Of a DNA stretch of 64,000 bases, positions 77 to 50,177 are shown one piece after another. Within the stretch, counting starts at the first letter, position 1. Every line of letters starts with the position of its first letter. This DNA comes from an uncultured Candidatus Saccharibacteria bacterium (lineage in GTDB: Bacteria; Patescibacteriota; Saccharimonadia; Saccharimonadales; JALRHH01), in assembly GCA_964559915.1 (NCBI GenBank), contig CAZLJP010000004.1, forward strand, positions 16,336-80,335, read 5' to 3'. A program made the position numbers and the translations under genes. The notes below the pieces were generated by a model that saw nothing but the letters and a program-made list of their open reading frames with translations, did not search any database and was not told the origin of the DNA.

Positions 77-856
77 CTAAAGTTGCTGGTACAAAGCGTA
101 CCACTGCTCAAGAGATAACTCTTGGGGGCGTGTGGTGGGGTTAATATTGGCGGCGGCTAGAAGCTTGGTCACAGCCGGCTTATCTATCTGAAGCCCCCCA
201 CTCAAACTATTCAGCAGCGTCTTGCGACGATTACTAAAACCCGCCTTCACCAGTCTGAAGAATTGTTTTGTATCAATATCAGGAAACAGTGGGGTGTCAC
301 GGCGTTTTAGGATAAGTACACGAGAATCTACCTTTGGTGGAGGCGTAAACAGATGCGCTGGCACAATTAACCCTGGCAAAGCCTGCCAATAATACTGTGC
401 TGTCACTGATAATAGCGACATATCGCCCGGCTCGGCGCTTACACGGTCGGCAACCTCTTTCTGAACCAGCAAGACCGCACAAGCCGGCTGATTTGTACTC
501 TCTGACAGTACGCGAATCAGCTTACTGGTGAGATAGTACGGGATATTAGCAACGACTTTGTAGTTGGCCGGCAGGCTCGTTAAATCAAAACTAAGGATAT
601 CTTGGTGGACGACTTCTAAGTTGCTCTCTGGCACGCGGCGCGCCAGCTCAGCTGCGAGCTTGTCATCAAACTCTACAGCCACTACTCGCCCCGCCCGCTC
701 ACAGAGCAGCTCAGTAAGTGTGCCCACGCCAGGGCCAATTTCAAGCACCGTATCATTGTCAGTCAGCTCGGCAGCGTCACAAATGGCAGACAGCGTCACA
801 AAATCGGTCAGCCAATGCTGACCCAAAGACTTCTTAGCAAACGGTAAATCTTTCAT
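77..856 (-). CDS. rsmA: 16S rRNA (adenine1518/1519-N6)-dimethyltransferase RsmA/KsgA
   Basis: KKSLGQHWLTD and the SAM-binding motif VLEIGPGVGTLT are typical of KsgA. The ATG at 856 gives a normal N-terminus. The longer track ORF (to 949) starts with TTG. Confidence 0.9.
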   Translation of the reverse strand: MKDLPFAKKSLGQHWLTDFVTLSAICDAAELTDNDTVLEIGPGVGTLTELLCERAGRVVAVEFDDKLAAELARRVPESNLEVVHQDILSFDLTSLPANYKVVANIPYYLTSKLIRVLSESTNQPACAVLLVQKEVADRVSAEPGDMSLLSVTAQYYWQALPGLIVPAHLFTPPPKVDSRVLILKRRDTPLFPDIDTKQFFRLVKAGFSNRRKTLLNSLSGGLQIDKPAVTKLLAAANINPTTRPQELSLEQWYALYQQL

Positions 857-973
857 TACCCGTATTGTACCAGCTACACTATCAGACTCACACGCTTCAC
901 ACTTGAGCCAATTTGGATATTCTGGTGCGAATCGCAGATTTACGCCCAAAACGTGCCAAGATTGAAGTTCAGT

Positions 974-2194
974 CTACCACCAGTGGTGGGAAAGCCAGAA
1001 GTTGTAGGCCCCCGCCCAACCACCATAGCGTGATGCATAGCCACTACACCAACGCAGCTGGGTAACCGGATTAGTCTGCCAGTCGCTGCCGGCAGTGGCC
1101 ATCTTTGACCCAGGCAATGCCTGGCATAGACCCCAAGTTTTTCCATTTGAGGCATTTACGCGCCAGCCGCTCTCACGACTCACGATATAGTTCACGTATG
1201 GGTAGTCTGACTTTGCGATACCAGCAGCGGCCATTACTGCCTCTTTGTCCGCAGGAATAAATACCGTTTTTCCACGAGCCACAATGCGCTTGACGGGCTC
1301 AACCGCTACAACTGACTGGATAACCTGACGACTGACTTCACGACCGTTTTCGGTCTTGAGCTGATAAGTTACCAGGCGCTTGCCTGCGCTGCCTTCTTGA
1401 CGTACCGCCGTACTACCAAACGAAAGTCGAGCGTCCTCAACCGTTTCTGTTGGCATAGCAATTGGCTCCTCTGCGGTGACAATCTGCACACCGTTACGTA
1501 CAACAAATACTTGTGTTTGGTCTGTAAGCGGAGTGTCGATGGATGGCTGAACGCTGTCATCTTTAGCTAGCTTAATTTTCTTTTCTTTGAGCAAATCGCC
1601 AACAGTTTTGACATGGGTACGAATAGGCGCAGGCGTGCCATACAGGTTGAGGTTCACAAGCGTTGCTCTATCGATGATTACCCGTTCACCAATACTACTA
1701 TCTTTGACAAAATCAGTAGCCGCTTCGACGTTTAGTGTGTCTTCTGGATAGACGGTAATACCCGCCTGGCTGGCGACACTGCGCGCCGTAGTAGCCGCAC
1801 TGTATGCAAAAGTTTTCTTACCATTGTCTACAACGGTAACAGGGCGAGCACGGTATATATTGATGCGGAATTTTTCCTCGAGGATTTCTGTCTCTTTGCT
1901 AGGCTCTACTACATCACCATCATGTAACTGCACGCCTGTTCGATTCAAAAATTCACCGACCGTTTTAGCTCGTGTTGGAAGCGTCTCTTGCTTTTTATCA
2001 TGGTTGAAAATAACTAGGTGGGAATCAGACGCCGTAACACGTTGGCCACCAGACAGAATAAATACCGCCGCGCCGATGGCGAACAAAACAAACATCGTGA
2101 CAATAGGGAGTACGAAGGGGTGCTTATGCCAGTTGTGCTTAGCCAGCCAACTGGCGCTGCGCTTGAATAGAGATTTTTTCTTGGATTTCGTCAT
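974..2194 (-). CDS. RpfB-like cell-wall protein (N-terminal TM, DUF348-type repeats, G5-like region, C-terminal lysozyme-like/aggregation-promoting-factor-type domain)
   Basis: N-terminal TM (FVLPIVTMFVLFAIGAAVFIL). Repeated V..GD.L....I.L...D segments. C-terminus YIVSRESGW...GLCQALPGSKM...WLSHHWW. Confidence 0.7.
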   Translation of the reverse strand: MTKSKKKSLFKRSASWLAKHNWHKHPFVLPIVTMFVLFAIGAAVFILSGGQRVTASDSHLVIFNHDKKQETLPTRAKTVGEFLNRTGVQLHDGDVVEPSKETEILEEKFRINIYRARPVTVVDNGKKTFAYSAATTARSVASQAGITVYPEDTLNVEAATDFVKDSSIGERVIIDRATLVNLNLYGTPAPIRTHVKTVGDLLKEKKIKLAKDDSVQPSIDTPLTDQTQVFVVRNGVQIVTAEEPIAMPTETVEDARLSFGSTAVRQEGSAGKRLVTYQLKTENGREVSRQVIQSVVAVEPVKRIVARGKTVFIPADKEAVMAAAGIAKSDYPYVNYIVSRESGWRVNASNGKTWGLCQALPGSKMATAGSDWQTNPVTQLRWCSGYASRYGGWAGAYNFWLSHHWW

Positions 2195-2260
2195 AAAATA
2201 TTGCTGTCATGGATAATTTCACCTCTGTAGATAAAATTACCGCACATATGAAAACAGTTC

Positions 2261-2752
2261 TTATGATACCAAGTTTTGGGCCGCCGACCAAGCCGCCAGA
2301 GCATCACGGACACTCGCAGTAGTGCCATGTGCACGGCCATTTACTGAGGCTATCGGGAGCCAGGCAACTTGCATAATTTCATGCTCTGGGATGTGCAGTT
2401 TAGGCATTGTAGCGAGCTGCACTGCAAACAAATAATGCTTTGTTGGCAGCCAGCCAGCTTGTCGAGAATGCTGCAATCCCAAATCCTGTAGCATATCTGG
2501 CTTCAGCTCAAGCTCTAGTTCCTCACCCGATTCACGAATTGCCGCATCCAGTGCAGCTTCGGCTGGGTGTATGCCGCCGCCCGGCAATGTCCAGCTACCT
2601 GAACCAAGCCAACTTTTCACAACCAGAACGTGGTCCTGATGCATGATTAGCACCCGAGCACGCGGGCGACTGATGATAACAAACACATAAATTCCGGGGT
2701 AACCTACCCAGAAACAAATATTTCCCCAGATTCTCCAAAGTAGCTTTTTCAT
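2261..2752 (-). CDS. NUDIX hydrolase
   Basis: Nudix box LPGGGIHPAEAALDAAIRESGEELEL. 4-nt overlap with the helicase gene upstream. Confidence 0.8.
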   Translation of the reverse strand: MKKLLWRIWGNICFWVGYPGIYVFVIISRPRARVLIMHQDHVLVVKSWLGSGSWTLPGGGIHPAEAALDAAIRESGEELELELKPDMLQDLGLQHSRQAGWLPTKHYLFAVQLATMPKLHIPEHEIMQVAWLPIASVNGRAHGTTASVRDALAAWSAAQNLVS

Positions 2753-4896
2753 AGCTTTTTAAGAGGCGCGAAGGCCGTGTTGAGTTTTTTCGTCCCCTTG
2801 CCCTTAAAATAAATAACTGCTGTTTCGCCCTGCATTTCCATCACCGTACCCCGGCCAAATACATCGTGCTGCACTGCATCACCTTCGCTAAGCTCCAGTA
2901 CATAGCTCACATCCTGGTTAATGTCATAACTGGCTGATTGGTCGTACGTATTCTGCCAGCTTGAACCACCGAGACTCACACTATCGACATGGAACGAACT
3001 ATCAATTTCACTTAGAAAGCGTGATGGTGGATTGTGCTGCATGCCGCCATATAACAACCGACCCGTAGCATAGCTCAGATATAACTCACTCTTGGCGCGC
3101 GTCATGCCTACGTAGCATAGGCGACGTTCTTCTTCCATTTCTGCTTGGTCATATAGTGCCCGCGAATGAGGAAAAATTGTTTCTTCCATGCCCGTCATAA
3201 ACACCACCGGGAATTCCAGGCCCTTGGCAGCATGCAATGTCATCAGTGTCACAACGTTAACACCGTTTTCCATACTGTCGACATCGCTTACCAGCGAAAC
3301 TTCCTCGAGGAATCCATCCAAACCGAGGTCCTGGTAGCTCTTGGCTACACTAATAAGTTCACGGACGTTTTCTTGGCGAGATTCGCCCTGGATAGTTTTA
3401 TCATCAAGATAGCTAAAGTAATTGATTCGGCGCAGCAAGCTTTCAATCAACGCTGGCAGAGGTGCCTCATCCAATGTTTGGCGTGCGCTACGCAGTATGT
3501 CGCCCAGTTCATGTAGGCCAAGCTTGGCCTTGCCGGTCAGAGCAGCACATTGTTCTACGCCTTCGAGTGCTGCCTGCAAACCCAGACCATTTGCAGCTTG
3601 CCAGTCGTAGAAATTTTGCAAGGATTTAGTACCAATACCACGGGTCGGTACATTTACCACGCGTTCAAAGCTGACACGGTCCTCTGGCTGATACATCAGC
3701 CGCAGATATGCCAGTACGTCTTTGATTTCTTTGCGGTCGTAGAACCGCTGGCCACCTACGATACGGTAAGGCACACCATATCGTACAAATGCTTCTTCTA
3801 CAGAACGACTCTGGGCATTGGTGCGATACAACACCGCAAAATCCTGATAATTCCGAAAGCGCGCATCGACTGCATTTTTAACGCGGCGCACAATGCCCTC
3901 GGCTTCGGCCCGTTCGTTGGCAACTTGAATCACATCAACCGGTTTGCCACCGGTACTGTTGGTCCACAATTTTTTGTCAGAACGTTGGTCATTTTTGCTA
4001 ATTACTGCGTGTGCCGCATCAAGAATTTCTTTAGTGCTCCGGTAGTTCTGCTCTAGCTTCACAATGGTGGCTTTGGGATTATCTTTTTCGAAGTTCAAGA
4101 TATTACGGAAATCTGCCCCGCGCCAGCTATAGATACTTTGCCAGTCATCACCCACCACAGCGATGTTATTATTCTGATTGGTTAATAGTTTGACTAAGCG
4201 ATATTGCGCTGCGTTGGTGTCCTGGTACTCGTCAATCATGACGTAGTGGAACTGCCGGCGCCAGTTGTCGCGAATATCAGTATGGGTTTCTAGCAAATGA
4301 ACGGTGCGAGCAATCAAATCGTCAAAATCAAGCGCACCCGCGTTCTTTAGAATGGTTTGGTACAACGGATATACCTGAGCCGCGGCTTTCTGGACAGGGC
4401 TACTAGAGCCATATTCACCTGGTGTGACAAGCTCGTTCTTAGCGTTGCTAATGTAGGATGACAGAGTGCGGGCAGGAAAACTTTTTTCATCCAACATCAA
4501 TTGTTTACTAGCTTGTTTGATAGCAGTCTGACGGTCTGATTCGTCAAAGATTACAAAGTTTGAAGGGATGCCGATTGCTTGGCCATTCTGGCGCAGTAAC
4601 CGCACGCAAATACTATGGAAGGTACCCATGTATGGCATGAAGCTACGGTTATCAGGGTTTTGGCCCAGCAATGTAGCCACGCGTTCGCGCATTTCGCGGG
4701 CTGCCTTATTAGTAAACGTCACTGCCAAAATTTGTGGTGGCGCAGCTTTGCCGGTGGCAATGAGGTACGCAATACGGTGGGTTAGGGTTTTGGTTTTACC
4801 CGAACCAGCGCCGGCCAGAATTAAAAGAGGGCCTTCGGTAGCAGCCACAGCGCGTGCTTGCTCGTCGTTTAGCCCAGCGGTAAAGTCATCTATCAC
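2749..4896 (-). CDS. uvrD: ATP-dependent DNA helicase, UvrD/PcrA family
   Basis: Walker A AGAGSGKTKTL, DEYQDT, and QNYRST and VTLMTLHAAKGLEF motifs over 715 aa. Confidence 0.92.
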   Translation of the reverse strand: MIDDFTAGLNDEQARAVAATEGPLLILAGAGSGKTKTLTHRIAYLIATGKAAPPQILAVTFTNKAAREMRERVATLLGQNPDNRSFMPYMGTFHSICVRLLRQNGQAIGIPSNFVIFDESDRQTAIKQASKQLMLDEKSFPARTLSSYISNAKNELVTPGEYGSSSPVQKAAAQVYPLYQTILKNAGALDFDDLIARTVHLLETHTDIRDNWRRQFHYVMIDEYQDTNAAQYRLVKLLTNQNNNIAVVGDDWQSIYSWRGADFRNILNFEKDNPKATIVKLEQNYRSTKEILDAAHAVISKNDQRSDKKLWTNSTGGKPVDVIQVANERAEAEGIVRRVKNAVDARFRNYQDFAVLYRTNAQSRSVEEAFVRYGVPYRIVGGQRFYDRKEIKDVLAYLRLMYQPEDRVSFERVVNVPTRGIGTKSLQNFYDWQAANGLGLQAALEGVEQCAALTGKAKLGLHELGDILRSARQTLDEAPLPALIESLLRRINYFSYLDDKTIQGESRQENVRELISVAKSYQDLGLDGFLEEVSLVSDVDSMENGVNVVTLMTLHAAKGLEFPVVFMTGMEETIFPHSRALYDQAEMEEERRLCYVGMTRAKSELYLSYATGRLLYGGMQHNPPSRFLSEIDSSFHVDSVSLGGSSWQNTYDQSASYDINQDVSYVLELSEGDAVQHDVFGRGTVMEMQGETAVIYFKGKGTKKLNTAFAPLKKL

Positions 4897-5015
4897 TGGT
4901 TTATTATACGTGCATAATCTACGGCTGAAAAGGCGTAGATTTAATCTGCTTAAAGAGCGGATTGGCGAGCTTTAGCTCGGTAGCGCGGATATCCAGCAGC
5001 CTAGGGCTGTAAGCC

Positions 5016-5576
5016 CTAAGGCGCTGATTTTAGCAGGTCAAAAGGTAGTTGTATGTCTGTATTAATTACATCAGCATCAATGGCCAGTACCACGCCAACC
5101 AGCAAAATTAACAGTGCTACGAATAGACCTAGCTCAATACGGTGAGTCCGTTTTTTTGCAGCTACACCAATTGGTACAAAATATTTTTTAGACTGAACGA
5201 GTTGTTCAACAAGCTCAAGCCGTTTATGTAGGACATCAGCATCCTTTTCGGCCTGCTTTTTGTCACCCGCACGCTCAACTACCGCATCAACTACTGCCTG
5301 GTCACTGATTGCGGCATCTTCAACATCTTTCTTGGCCGGCTCAGGCTGGGTGCTCGCTACTGGAGCTTGCTCACTCAGCGGTTTAACCACTTTACTAGTA
5401 GGCCGGGTAAGTTTCTCTGCACTTTGCTGTTCGGCTGGTTTTGCTTCATCAGCAGCCATCATTGGGTCTTTGAGGGGTATGCCGTGGCCGACGATAATGG
5501 GACGTGAAGTAGCGGCAGCTGGTGTCTTACCTGGCTTCTGGATATCGGTAATTGGTTTTGCTGGTTTTTCTGCCAT
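5016..5576 (-). CDS. hypothetical tail-anchored membrane protein (Ala/Pro/Lys-rich)
   Basis: Low-complexity N-terminal part and a single C-terminal TM (LGLFVALLILLVGVVLAI). No recognisable domain. Confidence 0.5.
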   Translation of the reverse strand: MAEKPAKPITDIQKPGKTPAAATSRPIIVGHGIPLKDPMMAADEAKPAEQQSAEKLTRPTSKVVKPLSEQAPVASTQPEPAKKDVEDAAISDQAVVDAVVERAGDKKQAEKDADVLHKRLELVEQLVQSKKYFVPIGVAAKKRTHRIELGLFVALLILLVGVVLAIDADVINTDIQLPFDLLKSAP

Positions 5577-5581
5577 AGGAT

Positions 5582-6373
5582 TTAATCTTTTAATTCGTGT
5601 TGTAACTTGTCGGCAGCGGCTACGATGCCCGAGAACTTATGATAATTGAGACTAGCTCCGCCAACGAGGACACCATCACAGCCGTTGATTTCCATGTAGC
5701 CACGAGCCAATTGCTCATCAACACTGCCACCGTACAGTACACGAACTGCTTTAGCAGCCTTGGCACCGTATAGTTCGTGAACTTGGTGCCTAATAAAATC
5801 AAATTGTTTCTGGATATCACTTGGCTTGGCTAACTCACCACCAAAGGTACTAATTGCCCAAACGGGCTCATAGGCAATAACGATGTTCTCAATTTCACCG
5901 GCCGTGAGATTACTTAGTGCAGTGGTAATCTGATCATGAAGCACTTGTTTGGTCTCGCCATTATGACGCTCGTCATGGGTTTCGCCCACACATAACACGG
6001 GAGTTATCTCGTTGCGCACAGCAGCTGCTACTTTGTCGCGAATCGTATCCAGTGATTCATGAAAATGAATACGGCGCTCGGAGTGCCCAATAATAACGTA
6101 ATGTACGAGGTCGCGCAGCATCGTGAAGCTGACTTCGCCCGTATATGCACCTTCGTCCTTGTGAAAGGCGTTCTGCGCAGCCAGGCGGAATTTGCGTCGA
6201 TCAATCTGCATGCTCAGCGGCTGCAACACAAGTAGGCTTGGTGCTAATACTACTTCGATATCGCGGTGAATCTTAATACGCTCATGGAGACGGTGTAGTA
6301 ACAAACTAGCCTGGGAAGTATTAAGATGCATCTTCCAATTACCGATGATGAGTTTTTTACGTATGGTGTTCAT
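5582..6373 (-). CDS. tpiA: triosephosphate isomerase
   Basis: IIGNWKMH, GHSERR, AYEPVWAI and YGGSV motifs. The internal ATG at 6373 (MNTIRKKLIIGNWKMH) avoids a 47-nt overlap with pgk. Confidence 0.92.
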   Translation of the reverse strand: MNTIRKKLIIGNWKMHLNTSQASLLLHRLHERIKIHRDIEVVLAPSLLVLQPLSMQIDRRKFRLAAQNAFHKDEGAYTGEVSFTMLRDLVHYVIIGHSERRIHFHESLDTIRDKVAAAVRNEITPVLCVGETHDERHNGETKQVLHDQITTALSNLTAGEIENIVIAYEPVWAISTFGGELAKPSDIQKQFDFIRHQVHELYGAKAAKAVRVLYGGSVDEQLARGYMEINGCDGVLVGGASLNYHKFSGIVAAADKLQHELKD

Positions 6374-6389
6374 ATTGCTTATGGATATC

Positions 6390-7682
6390 CTACTCTTTAT
6401 TGCGCAGTGCTTCAACACCAGGTAGTTTTTTGCCACTCATGAGCTCCAGGCTCGCACCACCGCCAGTTGATACATGGTTGAAGCTATTGATGAGCCCCCG
6501 CTCCTGAATATAGCCCACAGTATCACCACCACCCAACAGCGTAAACGGCTTGTTACCAAATTGCCCAAGCATGGACTCAACAATCAGTTCCGTACCGTGC
6601 GAGAAGGGTCCAACCGGGCCTTGTAGGCCTGTCGTCTCGGTTACGCCCATGGCACCATTCCAAATAACCGTGCCAGCAAGCTGCATAGAGCCGGCAATGA
6701 ACGCACCGGAGAACGGGCCAACATCAAGAATCAACTCATCATCAGCCACAGTACCGGTTTGCGCAGATGGTGTTTTGGGATAGGCTTCTATGTTAGCAAT
6801 CACGTGGGCGCTATAATCTACGATTCTGGTTGGTTTTGTGCCATCCACAGCCGTGGATACGACAGCGTCTTGCGGCAGATAAAACACAAACTTTTGTTTG
6901 GCAGCTTTAGCCCTGGCCTTGGCCACAATATCCTTGGCCAGTGGCACATCATCAGGCTCGGCCTTACTTTTGCCAATTTCTATGCCCTCAGCCAATAAAA
7001 ATGTGTTGGCCATAGCACCGCCAACTACGACAATGTCAGCAATATCAATGAAGCGATTCAAAATACCAATCTTGTCAGCAATCTTGGCGCCGCCAATAAT
7101 AGCCATCAATGGCCGAGTAGGCTGTTCCATGGCACTGGTAATAGTATCGACTTCTTTTTCGAGCAGTAGGCCAGCCACACTTGGGATATACTTTGGGACT
7201 TCTGACACTGATACAGAACCGTGATGCACGACACCAAAGGCATCCTGCACAAATATATCGGCACACGATGCCAATTGCTTGGCAAATGCTTGATTGTTGG
7301 TTTCTTCGCCAGCGTTAAAACGAATATTTTCCAGCAGCAGCACGCCGCCAGGCTTCAGCTCACCAATATTTTTTTCTACTGCCGGACCTACGCAGTCATC
7401 CGCAAAGGCAACTGGTTTCTTAAGCAATTCACTCAGACGTTCGGCGCATGGTTTCAGGCTTAGCTTGCTGTCACGCTTGCCATCTGGGCGCCCCAAATGT
7501 GAGCAAAGAATAATTTTGCACTTTTGTTCTATCAGATATTCAAGTGTGGGCAGTGATTGCTTGATACGGTAGTCGTCAGTAATAGCGCCGTTGTCATCAA
7601 GTGGCACATTGTAATCAACTCGCACCAAAACTGTCTTGCCAGCTAGTTTGATGTCACGAATTGTCTGTTTAGTAAAACTCAT
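6390..7682 (-). CDS. pgk: phosphoglycerate kinase
   Basis: VRVDYNVPL, CSHLGRP, LLENIRFN and STGGGASLE motifs. Confidence 0.95.
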   Translation of the reverse strand: MSFTKQTIRDIKLAGKTVLVRVDYNVPLDDNGAITDDYRIKQSLPTLEYLIEQKCKIILCSHLGRPDGKRDSKLSLKPCAERLSELLKKPVAFADDCVGPAVEKNIGELKPGGVLLLENIRFNAGEETNNQAFAKQLASCADIFVQDAFGVVHHGSVSVSEVPKYIPSVAGLLLEKEVDTITSAMEQPTRPLMAIIGGAKIADKIGILNRFIDIADIVVVGGAMANTFLLAEGIEIGKSKAEPDDVPLAKDIVAKARAKAAKQKFVFYLPQDAVVSTAVDGTKPTRIVDYSAHVIANIEAYPKTPSAQTGTVADDELILDVGPFSGAFIAGSMQLAGTVIWNGAMGVTETTGLQGPVGPFSHGTELIVESMLGQFGNKPFTLLGGGDTVGYIQERGLINSFNHVSTGGGASLELMSGKKLPGVEALRNKE

Positions 7683-9825: not shown

Positions 9826-9874
9826 GCCTAAATCATAGCACCTTATGTAGAAAATCGAACCCAGTTAACAGGTA

Positions 9875-9918
9875 CAAAAAAGCACCCTACTCCAAAACAT
9901 GGAATACGGGTGCTTTTT
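9875..9918 (-). terminator. intrinsic terminator after tRNA-Glu
   Basis: Minus strand has AAAAAGCACCC...GGGTGCTTTTTTGT (GCACCC/GGGTGC stem plus T tract). Confidence 0.6.
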
Positions 9919-34547: not shown

Positions 34548-34679
34548 AGTGTTCTCCTTTCAAATAAAAAACACCCGTGTTTATAAAACCCAGGTGCATT
34601 TTTCCAAGGACCCAACCAACCATCCATACCGTCTAAATTATGCTGATATTATAATACTACAAATAGATTATGTCAATGG

Positions 34680-34828
34680 TGGTACACCCGGCAAGAGACG
34701 CACATCTGTAGCCATGCTCGATGCAAGCATCTGCGCGTGGCCTGGATGACCGAACTTTAGCTCGAATCTTGTCTCGATAAATCGAGCAGAAATTAAAACC
34801 ACCCATAAAGGGTGGCTTGAATTTCTCC
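34680..34828 (-). repeat. tRNA-Arg-associated 3'-end-duplication module (terminator, conserved structured core 34699-34770, 17-nt copy of tRNA 3' end 34680-34696)
   Basis: TGGTACACCCGGCAAGA occurs at 34680-34696 and inside the tRNA at 34829-34845. The core is shared with modules at 46964-47025 and 49884-49957. The terminator AAGCCACCC-TTTAT-GGGTGGTTTTAATTT lies at 34790-34818. Confidence 0.75.
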
Positions 34829-34905
34829 TGGTACACCCGGCAAGATTCGAACTTGCGACACCTGGTTCCGAAGACCAGTGCTCTAATCCGCTGAGCTACG
34901 GGTGC
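34829..34905 (-). tRNA. tRNA-Arg (anticodon TCG), CCA encoded
   Basis: GCACCCG/CGGGTGT acceptor (G1-U72), anticodon arm CTGGT-CTTCGGA-ACCAG, T-arm GCAAG-TTCGAAT-CTTGC, then ACCA. Confidence 0.9.
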
Positions 34906-35033
34906 ATAAAGGCTTTTACAGATTAGCACATCTGTTAGAAACATGGTAGCAGCTTGGCTGTGGCTTATCTCACAGTCATAAGCAACTTACTACGGTACGA
35001 TGATACATGCCAATTAACGCCAAGGAGGTACGT

Positions 35034-38968: not shown

Positions 38969-40489
38969 ATGCCTACAACAAATGAGAAAATCGGACACCT
39001 TATTTACCAAGTAAGACAAGAGCGCAGCATGACGCAAGCGGAGTTTGCTCGCAAACTGGGGACCAGCCAGTCAGCCATTAATCGTATCGAGCATGGCAAA
39101 CAAAACCTGAGCTTGGAGACGCTTGGCCGTATCAGTGATGTGCTTAAAAAGCCGCTTATTAGCTTGGGTAGCAGCGCTGTGAACCTCCGTATCGAAGGTG
39201 GTCACGAGCTCAGCGGCAGCATCCAGACCAATGTTTCTAAGAATGCTGCTGTGTGTTTGTTATTTGCAGCCTTGCTTAATAAAGGTACGACTCGCCTAAA
39301 GCATATGCCCCGTATCGAAGAGGTCTATCGTATTATCGAAGTTCTGACCAGTATTGGCGTTAGCGTCAAGTGGCTGCCAGGCAACGACCTAGAAATCAAA
39401 CCTCCTGCAATAATTGACATGTCCAAAATGGATAAGACCGCTGCTCGCAAAACTCGTAGTGTCATCATGATGCTTGGCCCGCTTATGCACATCTTTAAAG
39501 AGTTTAAGATTCCGTATGCCGGTGGCTGTAAATTAGGCACACGCACCGTGCAGCCGCATCTGTTTGCACTGGAAGAGTTTGGTGTTGATATTGTGGCAAA
39601 AACCGGCCACTACCATGTTATTGTCCAGAAAAAATTACCCGAAGAAGTGGTGCTATACGAATCTGGCGATACCACCACAGAAAACGTCATCATGGCTGCC
39701 GCAAAGTTTGACGGCGAAGTCACAATCAAAATGGCCAGCGCCAATTACATGGTTCAGGACCTCTGTTTCTTCCTCAAGAAACTGGGAGTCAAGATTGAAG
39801 GCATCGGCACCAGCACTTTGCGTGTCCGCGGTGTCAAAGAAATCAAGAAGAACGTTACCTACTATCCCGGCGAAGACCCCATTGAGTCTATGACATTTGT
39901 GGCCGCAGCTGTTGCTACGAATTCCAAGCTCACCATCACCCGCTCTCCGATTGAGTTTTTGGAGCTGGAGCTACTAAAGCTCAAGAAAATGGGGCTCCGT
40001 ATTGATGTGTCAGAAAAATATAAAGCCAATAACGGACAGACCGATTTAGCAGACATCACCGTTCACAAGCACGATGGTGGTTTGCGGGCACTCGAAGAAA
40101 AGATTTATGCCCGTCCGTTCCCTGGTCTAAATATTGATAACTTGCCGTACTTTGTACCGGTAGCTGCCGTTGCCAAGGGGCGCACACTCATTCATGACTG
40201 GGTCTACGAAGAGCGAGCCCTCTATTACACAGAGATGCGCAAGCTCGGTGTTAACGTAACGCTCGCCGACCCACACCGTGCTTATATAGACGGACCAACC
40301 AAATGGAGCGCGGCTGATATTGTCTGTCCGCCCGCTTTGCGACCCGCCGTACTGCTACTCATTGGTATGCTTGCTGCCGACGGCGTATCAATCTTGCGTA
40401 ACATTTACTCTATCAATCGTGGGTATGAGGATTTGGCCGAGCGCTTAAATAGCATCGGTGCTCAAATCAGTCTTGTTCACGAGCTATAG
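38969..40489 (+). CDS. murA: XRE-type HTH domain fused to UDP-N-acetylglucosamine 1-carboxyvinyltransferase
   Basis: Residues 1-65 form a Cro/C1 HTH (MTQAEFARKLGTSQSAINRIEHGKQNLSLETL). The rest is full-length MurA (VSKNAAV, active-site loop YAGGCKLGTRTVQPH, RGYEDL) in one uninterrupted frame. Confidence 0.85.
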   Translation: MPTTNEKIGHLIYQVRQERSMTQAEFARKLGTSQSAINRIEHGKQNLSLETLGRISDVLKKPLISLGSSAVNLRIEGGHELSGSIQTNVSKNAAVCLLFAALLNKGTTRLKHMPRIEEVYRIIEVLTSIGVSVKWLPGNDLEIKPPAIIDMSKMDKTAARKTRSVIMMLGPLMHIFKEFKIPYAGGCKLGTRTVQPHLFALEEFGVDIVAKTGHYHVIVQKKLPEEVVLYESGDTTTENVIMAAAKFDGEVTIKMASANYMVQDLCFFLKKLGVKIEGIGTSTLRVRGVKEIKKNVTYYPGEDPIESMTFVAAAVATNSKLTITRSPIEFLELELLKLKKMGLRIDVSEKYKANNGQTDLADITVHKHDGGLRALEEKIYARPFPGLNIDNLPYFVPVAAVAKGRTLIHDWVYEERALYYTEMRKLGVNVTLADPHRAYIDGPTKWSAADIVCPPALRPAVLLLIGMLAADGVSILRNIYSINRGYEDLAERLNSIGAQISLVHEL

Positions 40490-45964: not shown

Positions 45965-45982
45965 AAAAACTTTACTTTAAAT

Positions 45983-46012
45983 AAAAAGCCGGTCATCAGA
46001 CCGGCTTTTTAT
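45983..46012. terminator. bidirectional intrinsic terminator
   Basis: AAAAAGCCGGTC-ATCA-GACCGGCTTTTTATTT. Confidence 0.75.
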
Positions 46013-46192
46013 TTGGGGCGAACGATGGGGATTGGCCACATTCTGCAGCCCCAAAACTTCGCTCATGGCAACATAGTTGCCAGAGGAAGATTTTCTTGCA
46101 AACAGCCACAGGCTGTTTTCACCCACGACCTTAGGGTGGGTTCGATACACATGTGCCAAATAATAAGTCCCACAAAAGTGGGACTTATTATT
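46009..46192 (-). repeat. tRNA-His-associated 3'-end-duplication module
   Basis: 26 nt (TTATTTGGGGCGAACGATGGGGATTG) at 46009-46034 equals 46188-46213. 11 nt (ACCCACGACCT) at 46121-46131 equals tRNA 46215-46225. An 86-nt insert at 46035-46120 sits at the T-loop position of the copy. The hairpin AATAATAAGTCCCAC-TTTT-GTGGGACTTATTATT directly follows the tRNA. Confidence 0.7.
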
Positions 46193-46939: not shown

Positions 46940-47106
46940 ATTGGTGCGGGTGCGGAGAATATAGATATAATCTTGCGGCGTGCTCGGTGCAAGCACCTGT
47001 GCGCGTCCTCGATTATCGAACTCTCGCTCGCTTTGGCTCGCTGACCGAGTTCAATCTCAGTCAATCAAACCAATTTCTAACTCTTTGCAAGCAAAGAATC
47101 AGAAAT
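46940..47106 (-). repeat. tRNA-Gly-associated 3'-end-duplication module (core 46964-47025)
   Basis: 21 nt (ATTGGTGCGGGTGCGGAGAAT) at 46940-46960 equals 47105-47125. The core is related to the Arg and Pro modules. The copy abuts the 5' end of tRNA-Arg(TCT). Confidence 0.75.
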
Positions 47107-47181: not shown

Positions 47182-47252
47182 TGAACCAGCATATTATACC
47201 AGTTTACATCTGTTATAATAAGCCTAACTTAATCATCTAATGAGGGACCCCC

Positions 47253-49866: not shown

Positions 49867-50043
49867 AGAGCACGAAAGGACAATGCACATCTACGGCCAT
49901 GCTCGAAGTAAACTTCTGTGCCTGGCCTTGATGACCGAACCTTCGACCTACAATCTTTTTCACTAGCGAAAAATCTTGGGTCGAAGGTTCGAGGACTGAG
50001 CACTGACCAAACAAAAAGCCCATCTTTCGATGGACTTTTTGTT
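49867..50043 (-). repeat. tRNA-Pro-associated module (terminator 50013-50040, inverted T-arm copies, core 49884-49957, diverged 3' copy)
   Basis: CGAACCTTCGACCT at 49936-49949 equals tRNA 50063-50076. GAAAGGAC at 49874-49881 equals 50054-50061. An opposite-orientation copy GGTCGAAGGTTCGAG lies at 49979-49993. The core is near-identical to the Arg module. Confidence 0.7.
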
Positions 50044-50120: not shown

Positions 50121-50177
50121 GTGTCTTAGACAACTGGGTAATTCTAACAGATTAGACGGTGGATTTCCAGAGGTTTG

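Follow-up and report, generated by a model that had tools for sequence, protein, structure and literature searches.

What is the non-coding segment that follows the tRNA-Arg(TCG) gene of an uncultured Candidatus Saccharibacteria bacterium and ends in a copy of that gene's own 3′ end? The window analyzed here is a stretch of 64,000 nucleotides (nt) (GenBank assembly GCA_964559915.1, contig CAZLJP010000004.1, positions 16,336–80,335, forward strand), and coordinates refer to it unless a locus from another genome (L number) is named. A first-pass annotation had described, in order on the minus strand, tRNA-Arg, a terminator, an insert and a 17-nt copy of the tRNA end, and had taken the segment for the prototype of a family of covarying elements. 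All of these parts were found where it placed them. Comparison with other loci shows that the unit behind tRNA-Arg is an insertion, of a kind that is site-specific for the T-loop and more rarely for the anticodon loop of tRNA genes. Such units form arrays, sometimes carry cargo and encode no enzyme of their own, and their helices are maintained on the tRNA-sense strand.

The unit behind tRNA-Arg(TCG)

The locus contains the following features, listed from the tRNA outward.

34829–34905, minus strand: intact tRNA-Arg(TCG) (ARAGORN; Rfam tRNA model, 66.7 bits); its nt 60–76 are the proximal copy of the direct repeat
34790–34818, minus strand: terminator-like hairpin AAGCCACCC TTTAT GGGTGGTTT (hairpin proper 34818–34796) with a T-rich tail
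34761–34786, minus strand: small hairpin CTCGATTTATCGAG followed by CAAGATTCGAG, read from the sequence
34760–34751, minus strand: X′, CTAAAGTTCG, an imperfect direct copy of the 5′ strand of the T-stem plus TTCG (tRNA nt ~49–57)
34697–34750, minus strand: conserved insert of 54 nt, short form (motif; covariance model, 53 bits)
34680–34696, minus strand: Y, TCTTGCCGGGTGTACCA, an exact 17-nt copy of tRNA-Arg nt 60–76 including CCA
34648–34676, minus strand: promoter TTGACA-N17-TATAAT of the downstream MazG-like gene (12 of 12 consensus matches)

Y lies 149 nt from the original 17-nt end of tRNA-Arg. As the first-pass annotation had proposed, X′ mimics the 5′ part of the T-arm, and the insert splits the resulting pseudo T-arm at tRNA position 57/58; the same X′ arrangement is repeated in more than 70 loci. 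Within the insert, an outer stem (P1) joins CATC (34748–34745) to GATG (34706–34703) and encloses an irregular hairpin (P2; core 34743–34713) with a C·A mismatch, a G·A mismatch and a bulged A, ending in the apical stem GATGC/GCATC. CAAGATTCGAG is a short remnant of an inverted (reverse-complement) copy of the tRNA T-arm, which we call segment A; the basis for this reading is the presence at other loci of full-length A homologues beginning with TGG. The open reading frame (ORF) at 34657–34944, already suspected to be spurious, overlaps the tRNA gene itself. Because the folding energy of the Arg module alone is unremarkable (z of −0.3 as DNA and −1.6 as RNA), the evidence for structure rests on comparison between copies. 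The window around the locus is ordinary chromosome, encoding MurB, GlyA, MurA, MPG and a P-type ATPase.

On the plus strand, an exact 10-nt repeat, GCACATCTGT, occurs in the 3′ end of the Arg insert (34700–34709) and just upstream of tRNA-Arg (34926–34935); an insert behind tRNA-Pro, described below, has AGATGTGC at the corresponding place. The repeat may be due to chance or may be related to a ATCTGTTAGAAT-type promoter motif (see below).

Empty sites in related genomes

Comparison of sister genomes for empty and filled sites, as the first-pass annotation had suggested, was informative. The closest relative found by way of the MazG neighbor (L121, 81% protein identity) has tRNA-Arg, a terminator and the promoter, and no module. 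In L125, on an 843-kb contig, tRNA-Arg(TCG) is followed directly by the promoter, again with no module. Only these two loci inform on synteny, as the context of the MazG gene is not conserved in L122–L124. The distal Y of the window lies 57 nt before the conserved MazG leader, and the tRNA end of L125 lies 65 nt before it. Since Y thus sits where the tRNA end of L125 sits relative to the leader, a 149-bp unit, terminator included, was inserted at tRNA-Arg. By the same spacing, compared with the empty sites of L121 and L125, Y occupies the place that the original tRNA-Arg 3′ end held before the insertion. The terminator at 34790–34818 is the tRNA-proximal end of the inserted unit; it arrived with the unit, because the orthologous site in L125 has no terminator there. 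The right boundary of the insertion is given by the promoter of the MazG-like gene, which is host sequence directly after Y and has a homologous counterpart in both L121 and L125.

Other modules in the window

The core of the insert, AGGMC-NN-GCRCAG-N10-CGAGCAYG, occurs exactly three times in the window (34713–34743, 46979–47009 and 49898–49928, all on the minus strand), each time behind one tRNA gene (Arg-TCG, Gly-TCC and Pro-TGG). The expectation from shuffled windows is 0.00, even with two mismatches allowed. The earlier claim that the insert is shared with the tRNA-Pro and tRNA-Gly loci is therefore correct. A covariance model, another check that had been suggested, scored 53 (Arg), 67.9 (Gly) and 50.4 bits (Pro), and the next best match in the window 13.7 bits. 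Together with a fourth module that carries a different insert, the additional copies are:

46940–47106, minus strand: second family member, behind tRNA-Gly(TCC) (21-nt repeat, core motif, 67.9 bits)
49874–50043, minus strand: third family member, behind tRNA-Pro(TGG) (14-nt repeat, core motif, 50.4 bits)
45979–46192, minus strand: family-2 insert on the same architecture, behind tRNA-His (56-nt repeat at 79%)

The Gly module consists of an AT-rich hairpin, an inverted T-arm-like segment GATTGAACTC, X′ GAGAGTTCG (47025–47017), the insert (47016–46961, P1 TAATC/GATTA) and Y (46960–46942); tRNA-Arg(TCT) begins 2 nt past Y. Because a consensus scan found neither a terminator nor a promoter in this module, the Gly copy probably lies within the transcript of a tRNA operon. 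A candidate promoter inside it, TTGCAC-N17-TATATC, received no support from the scan and was dropped. The Pro module comprises a terminator, the inverted T-arm copy GTCCTCGAACCTTCGACC (49995–49978), a central hairpin AAGATTTTTC..GAAAAAGATT, X′ AGGTCGAAGGTTCG (49949–49936), the insert (49935–49881) and a decayed Y (49880–49874). The 3′ copy is thus exact at Arg as claimed, whereas the Pro copy retains just 7 nt, TCCTTTC, of the 3′ part of its tRNA.

Behind tRNA-His, a first terminator is followed by the inverted copy ATCGAACCCACC, X′ AGGTCGTGGGT (46131–46121), an insert of 86 nt (46120–46035), Y CAATCCCCATCGTTCGCCCCA (from 46034, repeating 20 nt of the tRNA 3′ end) and another terminator homologous to the first. 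This insert is unrelated to family 1, and model R1 gives no match there in a scan of the window; it aligns with the insert behind tRNA-Arg(GCG) in L082. In all, modules follow four of the seven tRNA genes of the window.

Past tRNA-Glu and its terminator (9845–9875, minus strand), the sequence CTGGGTTCGATTTTC resembles the 5′ part of the tRNA-Glu T-arm. It could be a much-decayed remnant of a former module; neither the core nor a 3′-end copy is found at this site.

Size of the family and its attachment site

A motif scan over one genome per species gave at least 120 loci. Among the matches listed, 104 of 120 come from metagenome-assembled genomes of Saccharibacteria, Saccharimonadales or Saccharimonadia, or from contigs of the same kind that are unlabelled or probably mis-binned, and the remaining 16 are GC-rich chance matches without the inner stem. 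Also among the matches listed, several genomes hold three to four loci each, and a tRNA gene lies 30–130 nt upstream on the same strand in 77 of 126 motif matches. About 20 tRNA specificities are served, including Met, Leu, Ser, Asp, Lys, Ala, Val, Gly, Asn, Gln, Glu, His, Arg, Tyr, Trp, Phe, Ile and Pro. The attachment point is narrow: Y begins at tRNA position 58, 59 or 60 in 45 of 51 measurable cases. In the fetched loci, a sample chosen for having at least one module, modules stand behind 66 of 154 tRNA genes.

No described element of this architecture was known to the first-pass annotation, and none has emerged since. At the gathering threshold of Rfam 15, only tRNAs are reached in the window; a permissive search (E ≤ 5) with the window module and a long-form module returned nothing relevant, that is, tRNAs and chance microRNA-like matches on terminators. 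Searches of Rfam and of the literature found no equivalent, and the family is apparently undescribed. Phage and plasmid collections gave no blastn match in distant mode, and viral contigs gave no match to the full motif. A single viral match to a 19-mer core (L126) is at chance level and was discounted; it falls in the control region of an IncFII-RepA P2-like phage-plasmid. That replication-control region (L126, 320–440) holds a AAGGACGAAGTCCT hairpin resembling the accessory hairpin of the long-form insert, a likeness we judge coincidental.

Anatomy of the unit

After the tRNA gene, a full unit consists of a hairpin, A, a small hairpin, X′, the insert and Y. The first hairpin is usually a canonical terminator; where the next tRNA is co-transcribed, it is a hairpin without a T-tract. 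A is an imperfect reverse complement of tRNA nt ~45–76, typically beginning with TGG. The small central hairpin is partly conserved across different tRNAs (GTGAGCGAAGCGAAC or AGATTTTGC..GCAAAATAT). X′ repeats the 5′ strand of the T-stem plus GGTTCG imperfectly and in direct orientation, and the insert is a conserved irregular hairpin domain of 54–75 nt. The direct repeat that bounds the unit runs from tRNA nt 58, 59 or 60 to nt 76; the tRNA itself is left intact, and the 3′ end that was displaced or duplicated is distal to the unit. A whole unit measures ~150 bp, and minimal units of ~127–165 bp with the same full architecture recur. Most units are promoterless and have a canonical terminator on one side and the next promoter on the other. 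Where a unit contains genes, they sit between the tRNA and the terminator.

The common, long insert has the layout GTGGAGCG-AGGACGCGCGCAG-(4–5 bp, CUUG-type loop)-CGAGCACGCCGCAGCGGAAAAG-(short hairpin)-CCGCT. The Arg and Pro inserts of the window are short forms without the last hairpin, and the Gly insert belongs to the form with an outer stem ATATTC/GAATAT or TAATC/GATTA. The Arg module is therefore a real member of the family but an atypical prototype: the common form has the further hairpin, the inverted copy and the central hairpin. Model R1 also recovers the divergent families B and C, which have only CGCAG-(hairpin)-CGAG in common, and in L010, L049 and L077 the same site is taken by other inserts outside family 1, which have a GCCAGTGGC-type hairpin. 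Among 66 downstream 3′-end copies in the loci, none belongs to a module without an insert; an insert of 45–120 nt stands between TTCG and position 58 in every case. A tRNA-like cloverleaf built from A, X′ and Y was considered and rejected, since the inverted T-arm has no stem of its own and the CCA end would be taken up in pairing with A. Neither ARAGORN nor the Rfam tRNA model detects a tRNA in the module, in which only tRNA nt ~45–57 and 58–76 are represented.

Covariation and the folding strand

The compensatory changes that had been seen in the inner stem of three copies hold in 62 homologues. Over the 12 pairs of P2 in these sequences, 91.7% of cells are paired, and double changes occupy 100 cells against 35.8 in shuffles; none of 500 shuffles reaches the observed score. 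Registers slid by one to three columns are just 17–36% paired. The outer stem covaries as well, as claimed: in 23 short-form copies, P1 shows double changes at four of six pairs, its variants being CATC/GATG, TAATC/GATTA, ATATTC/GAATAT, CTTC/GAAG and CGAC/GTCG. Variants of family B add compensatory changes at three further P2 pairs, and the C·A mismatch, the G·A mismatch and the bulged A are kept in families 1, B and C. The invariance of core positions is partly a product of the search pattern, which fixes 19 positions, so that core conservation is overstated.

A second helix joins A to X′. Automated pairing of A and X′ over 78 modules was too noisy, owing to the T-rich tails of terminators, and 14 clean cases were used. 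In these, A pairs with X′ at 11–14 of 14 positions, giving 147 Watson-Crick, 25 G·T and 1 A·C positions, and A and X′ share recurrent departures from the tRNA sequence (X′ TAGTC with A GACT). P2 likewise contains 11 G·T and 4 A·C. Because G·T far outnumbers A·C, and because both arms depart together from the tRNA, it is on the tRNA-sense strand that folding is selected. Such a strand-specific pattern would be expected neither of a palindrome that proteins bind in double-stranded form nor of a neutral scar.

Whether the folded strand is single-stranded DNA (ssDNA) or possibly RNA is not settled by the loops. In the accessory hairpins, GNA or AAA triloops with a closing C-G pair predominate, a hallmark of stable DNA mini-hairpins such as d(GCGAAGC); the apex of P2 is most often CUUG closed by G-C, a stable RNA tetraloop.

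Arrays, cargo, decay and persistence

Repeated insertion is visible at several loci. L049 has three identical units with a period of 157 nt, and both L107 and the His locus of the window have two homologous terminators with compensated stems. In L008, 3 kb separates two modules that each terminate in a copy of the tRNA-Met 3′ end; three genes lie between them, among these one for a Bax-inhibitor-like membrane protein (BaxI; cargo at 4540–7440). Other cargo comprises AbiJ (L016, 1470–5730), IrrE/ImmA with DUF4411 (L093, 2000–6650), two Fic/DOC genes (L105, 1700–4540) and a TehB-like methyltransferase (L103, 6040–6935). The cargo between tRNA and distal module is accessory or defensive.

The left junction of a module usually follows TTCG. 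In the anticodon-loop versions it follows CTCATA, where the same core interrupts a partial tRNA-Met. In L055 (240–360) and L024 (3450–3560), tRNA-Met nt 1–37, the insert and nt 38–48 lie upstream of the intact gene; the core is followed by a shared extra segment, CCCAAAGGAGCCG.AG.CGACGACGGATAAC, and the partial copy has its own promoter. In L025 (5620–5860), a corresponding arrangement lies downstream of the intact gene.

Distal tRNA copies decay, with CCA changed to CTA or CAG. The insert itself persists: six orthologous tRNA-Leu(TAG) loci, whose neighboring protein is only 51% identical between them, all retain a module with the same scaffold and different compensated apical stems. Orthologous tRNA-Met/DivIC loci hold different subtypes and arrays. 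Inserts at the same tRNA are 0.73 identical and those at different tRNAs 0.69, values too close to decide between vertical and horizontal descent. The family is both long-lived and repeatedly renewed. The earlier statement that the segment is not a decaying scar is thus right for the hairpin, which is conserved with compensatory changes, but not for the whole ~150-bp unit, which is an insertion with decaying distal tRNA copies.

The search for an enzyme

A linked recombinase, which the first-pass annotation had advised looking for, was not found in 106 loci or among the ORFs of the window; whole genomes lay outside this search. No gene family recurs in more than 11 of the 106 loci, and those that recur are syntenic housekeeping genes. 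The cargo ORFs are not integrases, and no integrase or fragment of one lies inside any unit of these loci. In the window, phmmer detected no Xer-like protein, serine recombinase or rolling-circle Rep among the ORFs, with an approximate Xer query of limited sensitivity. No intI with attI and Pc was found in the window or adjoining the arrays of L049, L008 and L103.

L103 does contain a separate integrated element (78–5845), which has tRNA-Gln on one side and an older module on the other. A 9–10-bp repeat, CCCCAGCCA, delimits this element, which encodes a large serine recombinase with Resolvase, Recombinase and Zn-ribbon domains (PHROG integrase, E = 1.6e-59) together with a rolling-circle Rep (PF23343). 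Neither protein was retained as a candidate mobilizer of the modules, as both belong to this separate element with its own repeat CCCCAGCCA. Large serine recombinases near tRNA genes also occur in L073 and L120.

Discussion

We hold with about even confidence, from the combined analysis, that the modules are non-autonomous tRNA-targeting insertion cassettes in which the hairpin serves as a folded single-strand end for an enzyme acting in trans. The sense strand would fold, as ssDNA or possibly RNA; A would pair with X′ and Y into a duplex mimicking the target tRNA gene, from which the conserved hairpin would protrude at position 57/58. A recombinase or transposase encoded elsewhere might then recognize the folded end and join it to the T-loop of a tRNA gene, by a logic like that of integron attC sites and of the hairpin attP of CTX phage. 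Such a model would account for the lack of a linked integrase, for an exact, host-derived Y beside imperfect, element-borne A and X′, and for the accumulation of copies.

Several observations weigh against the cassette model. It leaves unexplained how A and X′ come to match each of ~20 tRNAs. No recombinase, excised form or attP-bearing replicon was found, and beyond the chance-level viral match the module was not found in the phage and plasmid collections or IMG/VR. Retention at the tRNA-Leu(TAG) loci suggests that selection has kept the module in place for a long time, as would be expected of an element useful to its host no less than of a mobile one. Those copies that lie within tRNA operons (Gly-Arg in the window; Ala-Ile in L020 and L060) must be part of a transcript, and a G·T share of 13% among helix positions is commoner in RNA than in DNA. 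Finally, extra copies within the same loci, which are free of the search bias that overstates core conservation, score 23–57 bits. In a bolder version, which we think rather unlikely, Saccharibacteria would have an integron-like cassette system without a fixed platform, any tRNA gene being an attachment site. Cassettes with 0 to >4 kb of cargo would terminate in a programmable hairpin, its arms imitating the target tRNA and its conserved branch recruiting a host recombinase that acts on folded ssDNA.

The main rival, a tRNA-linked structured RNA with a host function, seems doubtful to us. It would be transcribed with or after the tRNA, fold into the A·X′ helix and a P1–P3 domain and be trimmed at its tRNA-like CCA end, and differences in presence would reflect gene gain and loss. 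Covarying stems, the excess of G·T over A·C on the sense strand in both helices, the G-C-closed CUUG apex, the tRNA-Leu loci and the copies between co-transcribed tRNAs, which lack a T-tract terminator and so lie within the transcript, all suit such an RNA. Yet most copies stand behind canonical intrinsic terminators with no promoter seen, the distal CCA and Y have decayed in many copies (that behind tRNA-Pro in the window included), C-G-closed triloops dominate the other hairpins, and no Rfam family matches, the tRNA-linked repeat RtT included. Arrays, cargo units and the differing subtypes at the orthologous tRNA-Met locus indicate repeated insertion. The modules might instead be deletion remnants (attL/attR scars, similar to cis-mobilizable elements [CIMEs]) of tyrosine-integrase islands or prophages, the insert being an attP arm that adjoined the crossover. 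In favor of this origin, the direct repeat extends from the T-loop as far as the tRNA 3′ end, the tRNA is regenerated, the T-loop and the anticodon loop are reportedly the two classical sublocations of integrases in tRNA genes, the cargo consists of defense and toxin genes, and the tandem accretion resembles tycheposon islands. We nevertheless consider this origin improbable. None of the units of the 106 loci contains an integrase or a piece of one, the Xer-like genes of L017 and L065 are far from modules, and the large serine recombinases of L103, L073 and L120 belong to separate elements with their own 9–10-bp repeat. The insert would split the core site between TTCG and position 58, a double-stranded arm site needs neither compensatory evolution nor strand-specific G·T, and the ~127–165-bp units recur with the same full architecture. 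Direct repeats flanking a full-length element had been named in advance as the finding that would reduce the modules to attL/attR remnants. The repeats do flank gene-bearing segments (3 kb in L008), but there is no integrase there. Because these segments lack an integrase and the hairpin is conserved with compensatory changes, the module is not a neutral attL/attR remnant.

The insert alone could be a tiny IS200/IS605-like, palindrome-associated ssDNA transposon that uses an HUH enzyme and inserts 3′ of TTCG where tRNA genes form hairpin loops. Insertions would survive only in partial duplicates of a tRNA, which snap-back or template switching at the terminator and at the central hairpin would produce in the manner of tandem-inversion duplications. 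The precise point of insertion in a loop, strict orientation, DNA-type hairpins and several unrelated insert families at one site fit this proposal, as does the direct-inverted-direct order of tRNA 3′ halves with hairpins at both junctions, which is reportedly the layout of such duplications. However, the central hairpin region (GTGAGCGAAGCGAAC, AGATTTTGC..GCAAAATAT) is conserved across different tRNAs; the scaffold therefore belongs to the mobile unit and is not remade per locus. The short form of the window has one hairpin domain only, and no TnpA/TnpB-like gene was noticed, although no genome-wide search for TnpA was made; we give this origin a slim chance. An RNA-mediated (retro) origin appears very improbable. 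The unit would then resemble R–PBS–body–R (R, repeat; PBS, primer-binding site), with A as the binding site for a tRNA 3′ end. Retroviral reverse transcriptases copy 18–19 nt from their tRNA primers, up to position 58. An 18–19-nt copy up to position 58 is what the units have, A starts with TGG, and the repeat boundaries match the ends of mature tRNA fragments (nt 58–76, 1–37 and 38–76) at CCA, +1 and the loops. Against this, none of the loci showed a reverse transcriptase, A matches imperfectly near the 3′ end of the supposed primer, cargo sits between the repeat and A, and identity ending at mature termini is explained by selection on a functional tRNA alone.

Saccharibacteria and other members of the Candidate Phyla Radiation have tiny genomes with few recognizable mobile elements, and their exchange of defense and accessory genes is poorly understood. 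Modules behind a large share of tRNA genes, bracketing variable cargo, would mark places of gene flux. Arms that copy the target tRNA in both orientations, with a covarying branch at 57/58, suggest an uncatalogued kind of recombination substrate or RNA. If the integron-like version of the cassette model were true, the modules would be site-specific recombination sites of a new class and would provide a principal path for gene flux in reduced episymbiont genomes. In practical terms, the modules yield spurious ORFs and pseudo-tRNA fragments, which annotation pipelines should mask.

Further features of the window

The 5′ leader of the MazG-like gene (TATGGATGGTTGGTTGGGTCCTTGGAAAAATGCACCTGGG...; 34548–34645, minus strand) is nearly identical in three species (L121, 150–215; L125, 2055–2135) whose MazG proteins are 71–81% identical. 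It ends in a terminator-like hairpin and a T-run just before the ribosome-binding site, and may be an unannotated riboswitch or attenuator; Rfam gave no match to it at the gathering threshold.

A ATCTGTTAGAAT-type motif precedes tRNA genes and genes after modules (window 50141–50169, 34910–34945 and 47185–47215; L125, 1890–1915; L103, 70–90). By its sequence, it looks like an extended −10 promoter (TGN-TAnAAT) typical of these genomes.

The MurA-like protein encoded at 38969–40489 (plus strand; EPSP_synthase fold, E = 2.6e-45) has an N-terminal Cro/C1-type helix-turn-helix domain (HTH_3, E = 1.2e-15), a fusion that is unusual for a cell-wall enzyme.

Comparison with known systems

RtT, the tRNA-linked repeats behind E. 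coli tyrT (Rfam RF00391), consist of units that end in ~19 nt of the tRNA 3′ end including CCA. Like the modules, they lie downstream of a tRNA gene, sometimes in tandem. There is no similarity in sequence or by covariance model, and unlike RtT the module family serves ~20 tRNA species in one phylum, usually behind a terminator, and has an inverted tRNA copy and a hairpin embedded in the T-loop. The palindrome-associated transposable elements (PATEs) of IS200/IS605 and miniature inverted-repeat transposable elements (MITEs) are similarly small, ORF-less, rich in hairpins, orientation-specific and multicopy. The modules differ from them in the 17–21-nt target repeat that flanks them, in internal segments tailored to each tRNA and in the absence of the usual terminal inverted repeats; no cognate transposase was identified, a genome-wide TnpA search not having been made.

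Like an integron attC site, the module is a cassette-terminal imperfect inverted repeat that would fold single-stranded, in which unpaired or bulged bases are conserved and the apical stem varies; the target supplies the distal half-site, units form arrays and the cassette has no recombinase. However, it lacks RYYYAAC/GTTRRRY boxes: its junctions are GGTTCG|G.. and ..GCT|ATCC, and neither GTTCGGT nor GTTCGAT fits GTTRRRY. Any tRNA gene, and not a single attI beside intI, serves as its target, its arms imitate a specific tRNA, and no IntI was found in the window or the arrays of L049, L008 and L103. In the hairpin attP of CTX phage and other integrative mobile elements exploiting Xer (IMEX), which is ssDNA acted on by host XerCD, two inverted target-like sequences on one strand mimic the chromosomal site, as in the module, and an unpaired central region lies at the crossover. 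There too the element encodes no recombinase, and integration is effectively irreversible, so that tandem copies accumulate. In the module, by contrast, the target is a tRNA T-arm and not dif, there are no phage genes, the unpaired region is a conserved structured domain of 54–75 nt, and no candidate enzyme was found.

Islands at tRNA genes and their non-autonomous derivatives include P4-type tyrosine-integrase elements, CIMEs and the tycheposon remnants of Prochlorococcus (bioRxiv 10.1101/2020.12.28.424599). The modules share with them insertion at a tRNA gene that is regenerated, a direct repeat of the tRNA 3′ part starting at the T-loop or anticodon loop, successive integrations that push older units outward, defense or accessory cargo and empty sites in relatives. 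They differ in having no integrase in or beside any unit and in a minimal unit of ~130–165 bp. The covarying hairpin of the module splits the pseudo T-arm, so that attR is not a contiguous core site; every full unit has an inverted copy of the tRNA 3′ half, and the helices are kept on one strand. With these differences in mind, we class the module as nearest in kind to tRNA-targeting integrative elements.

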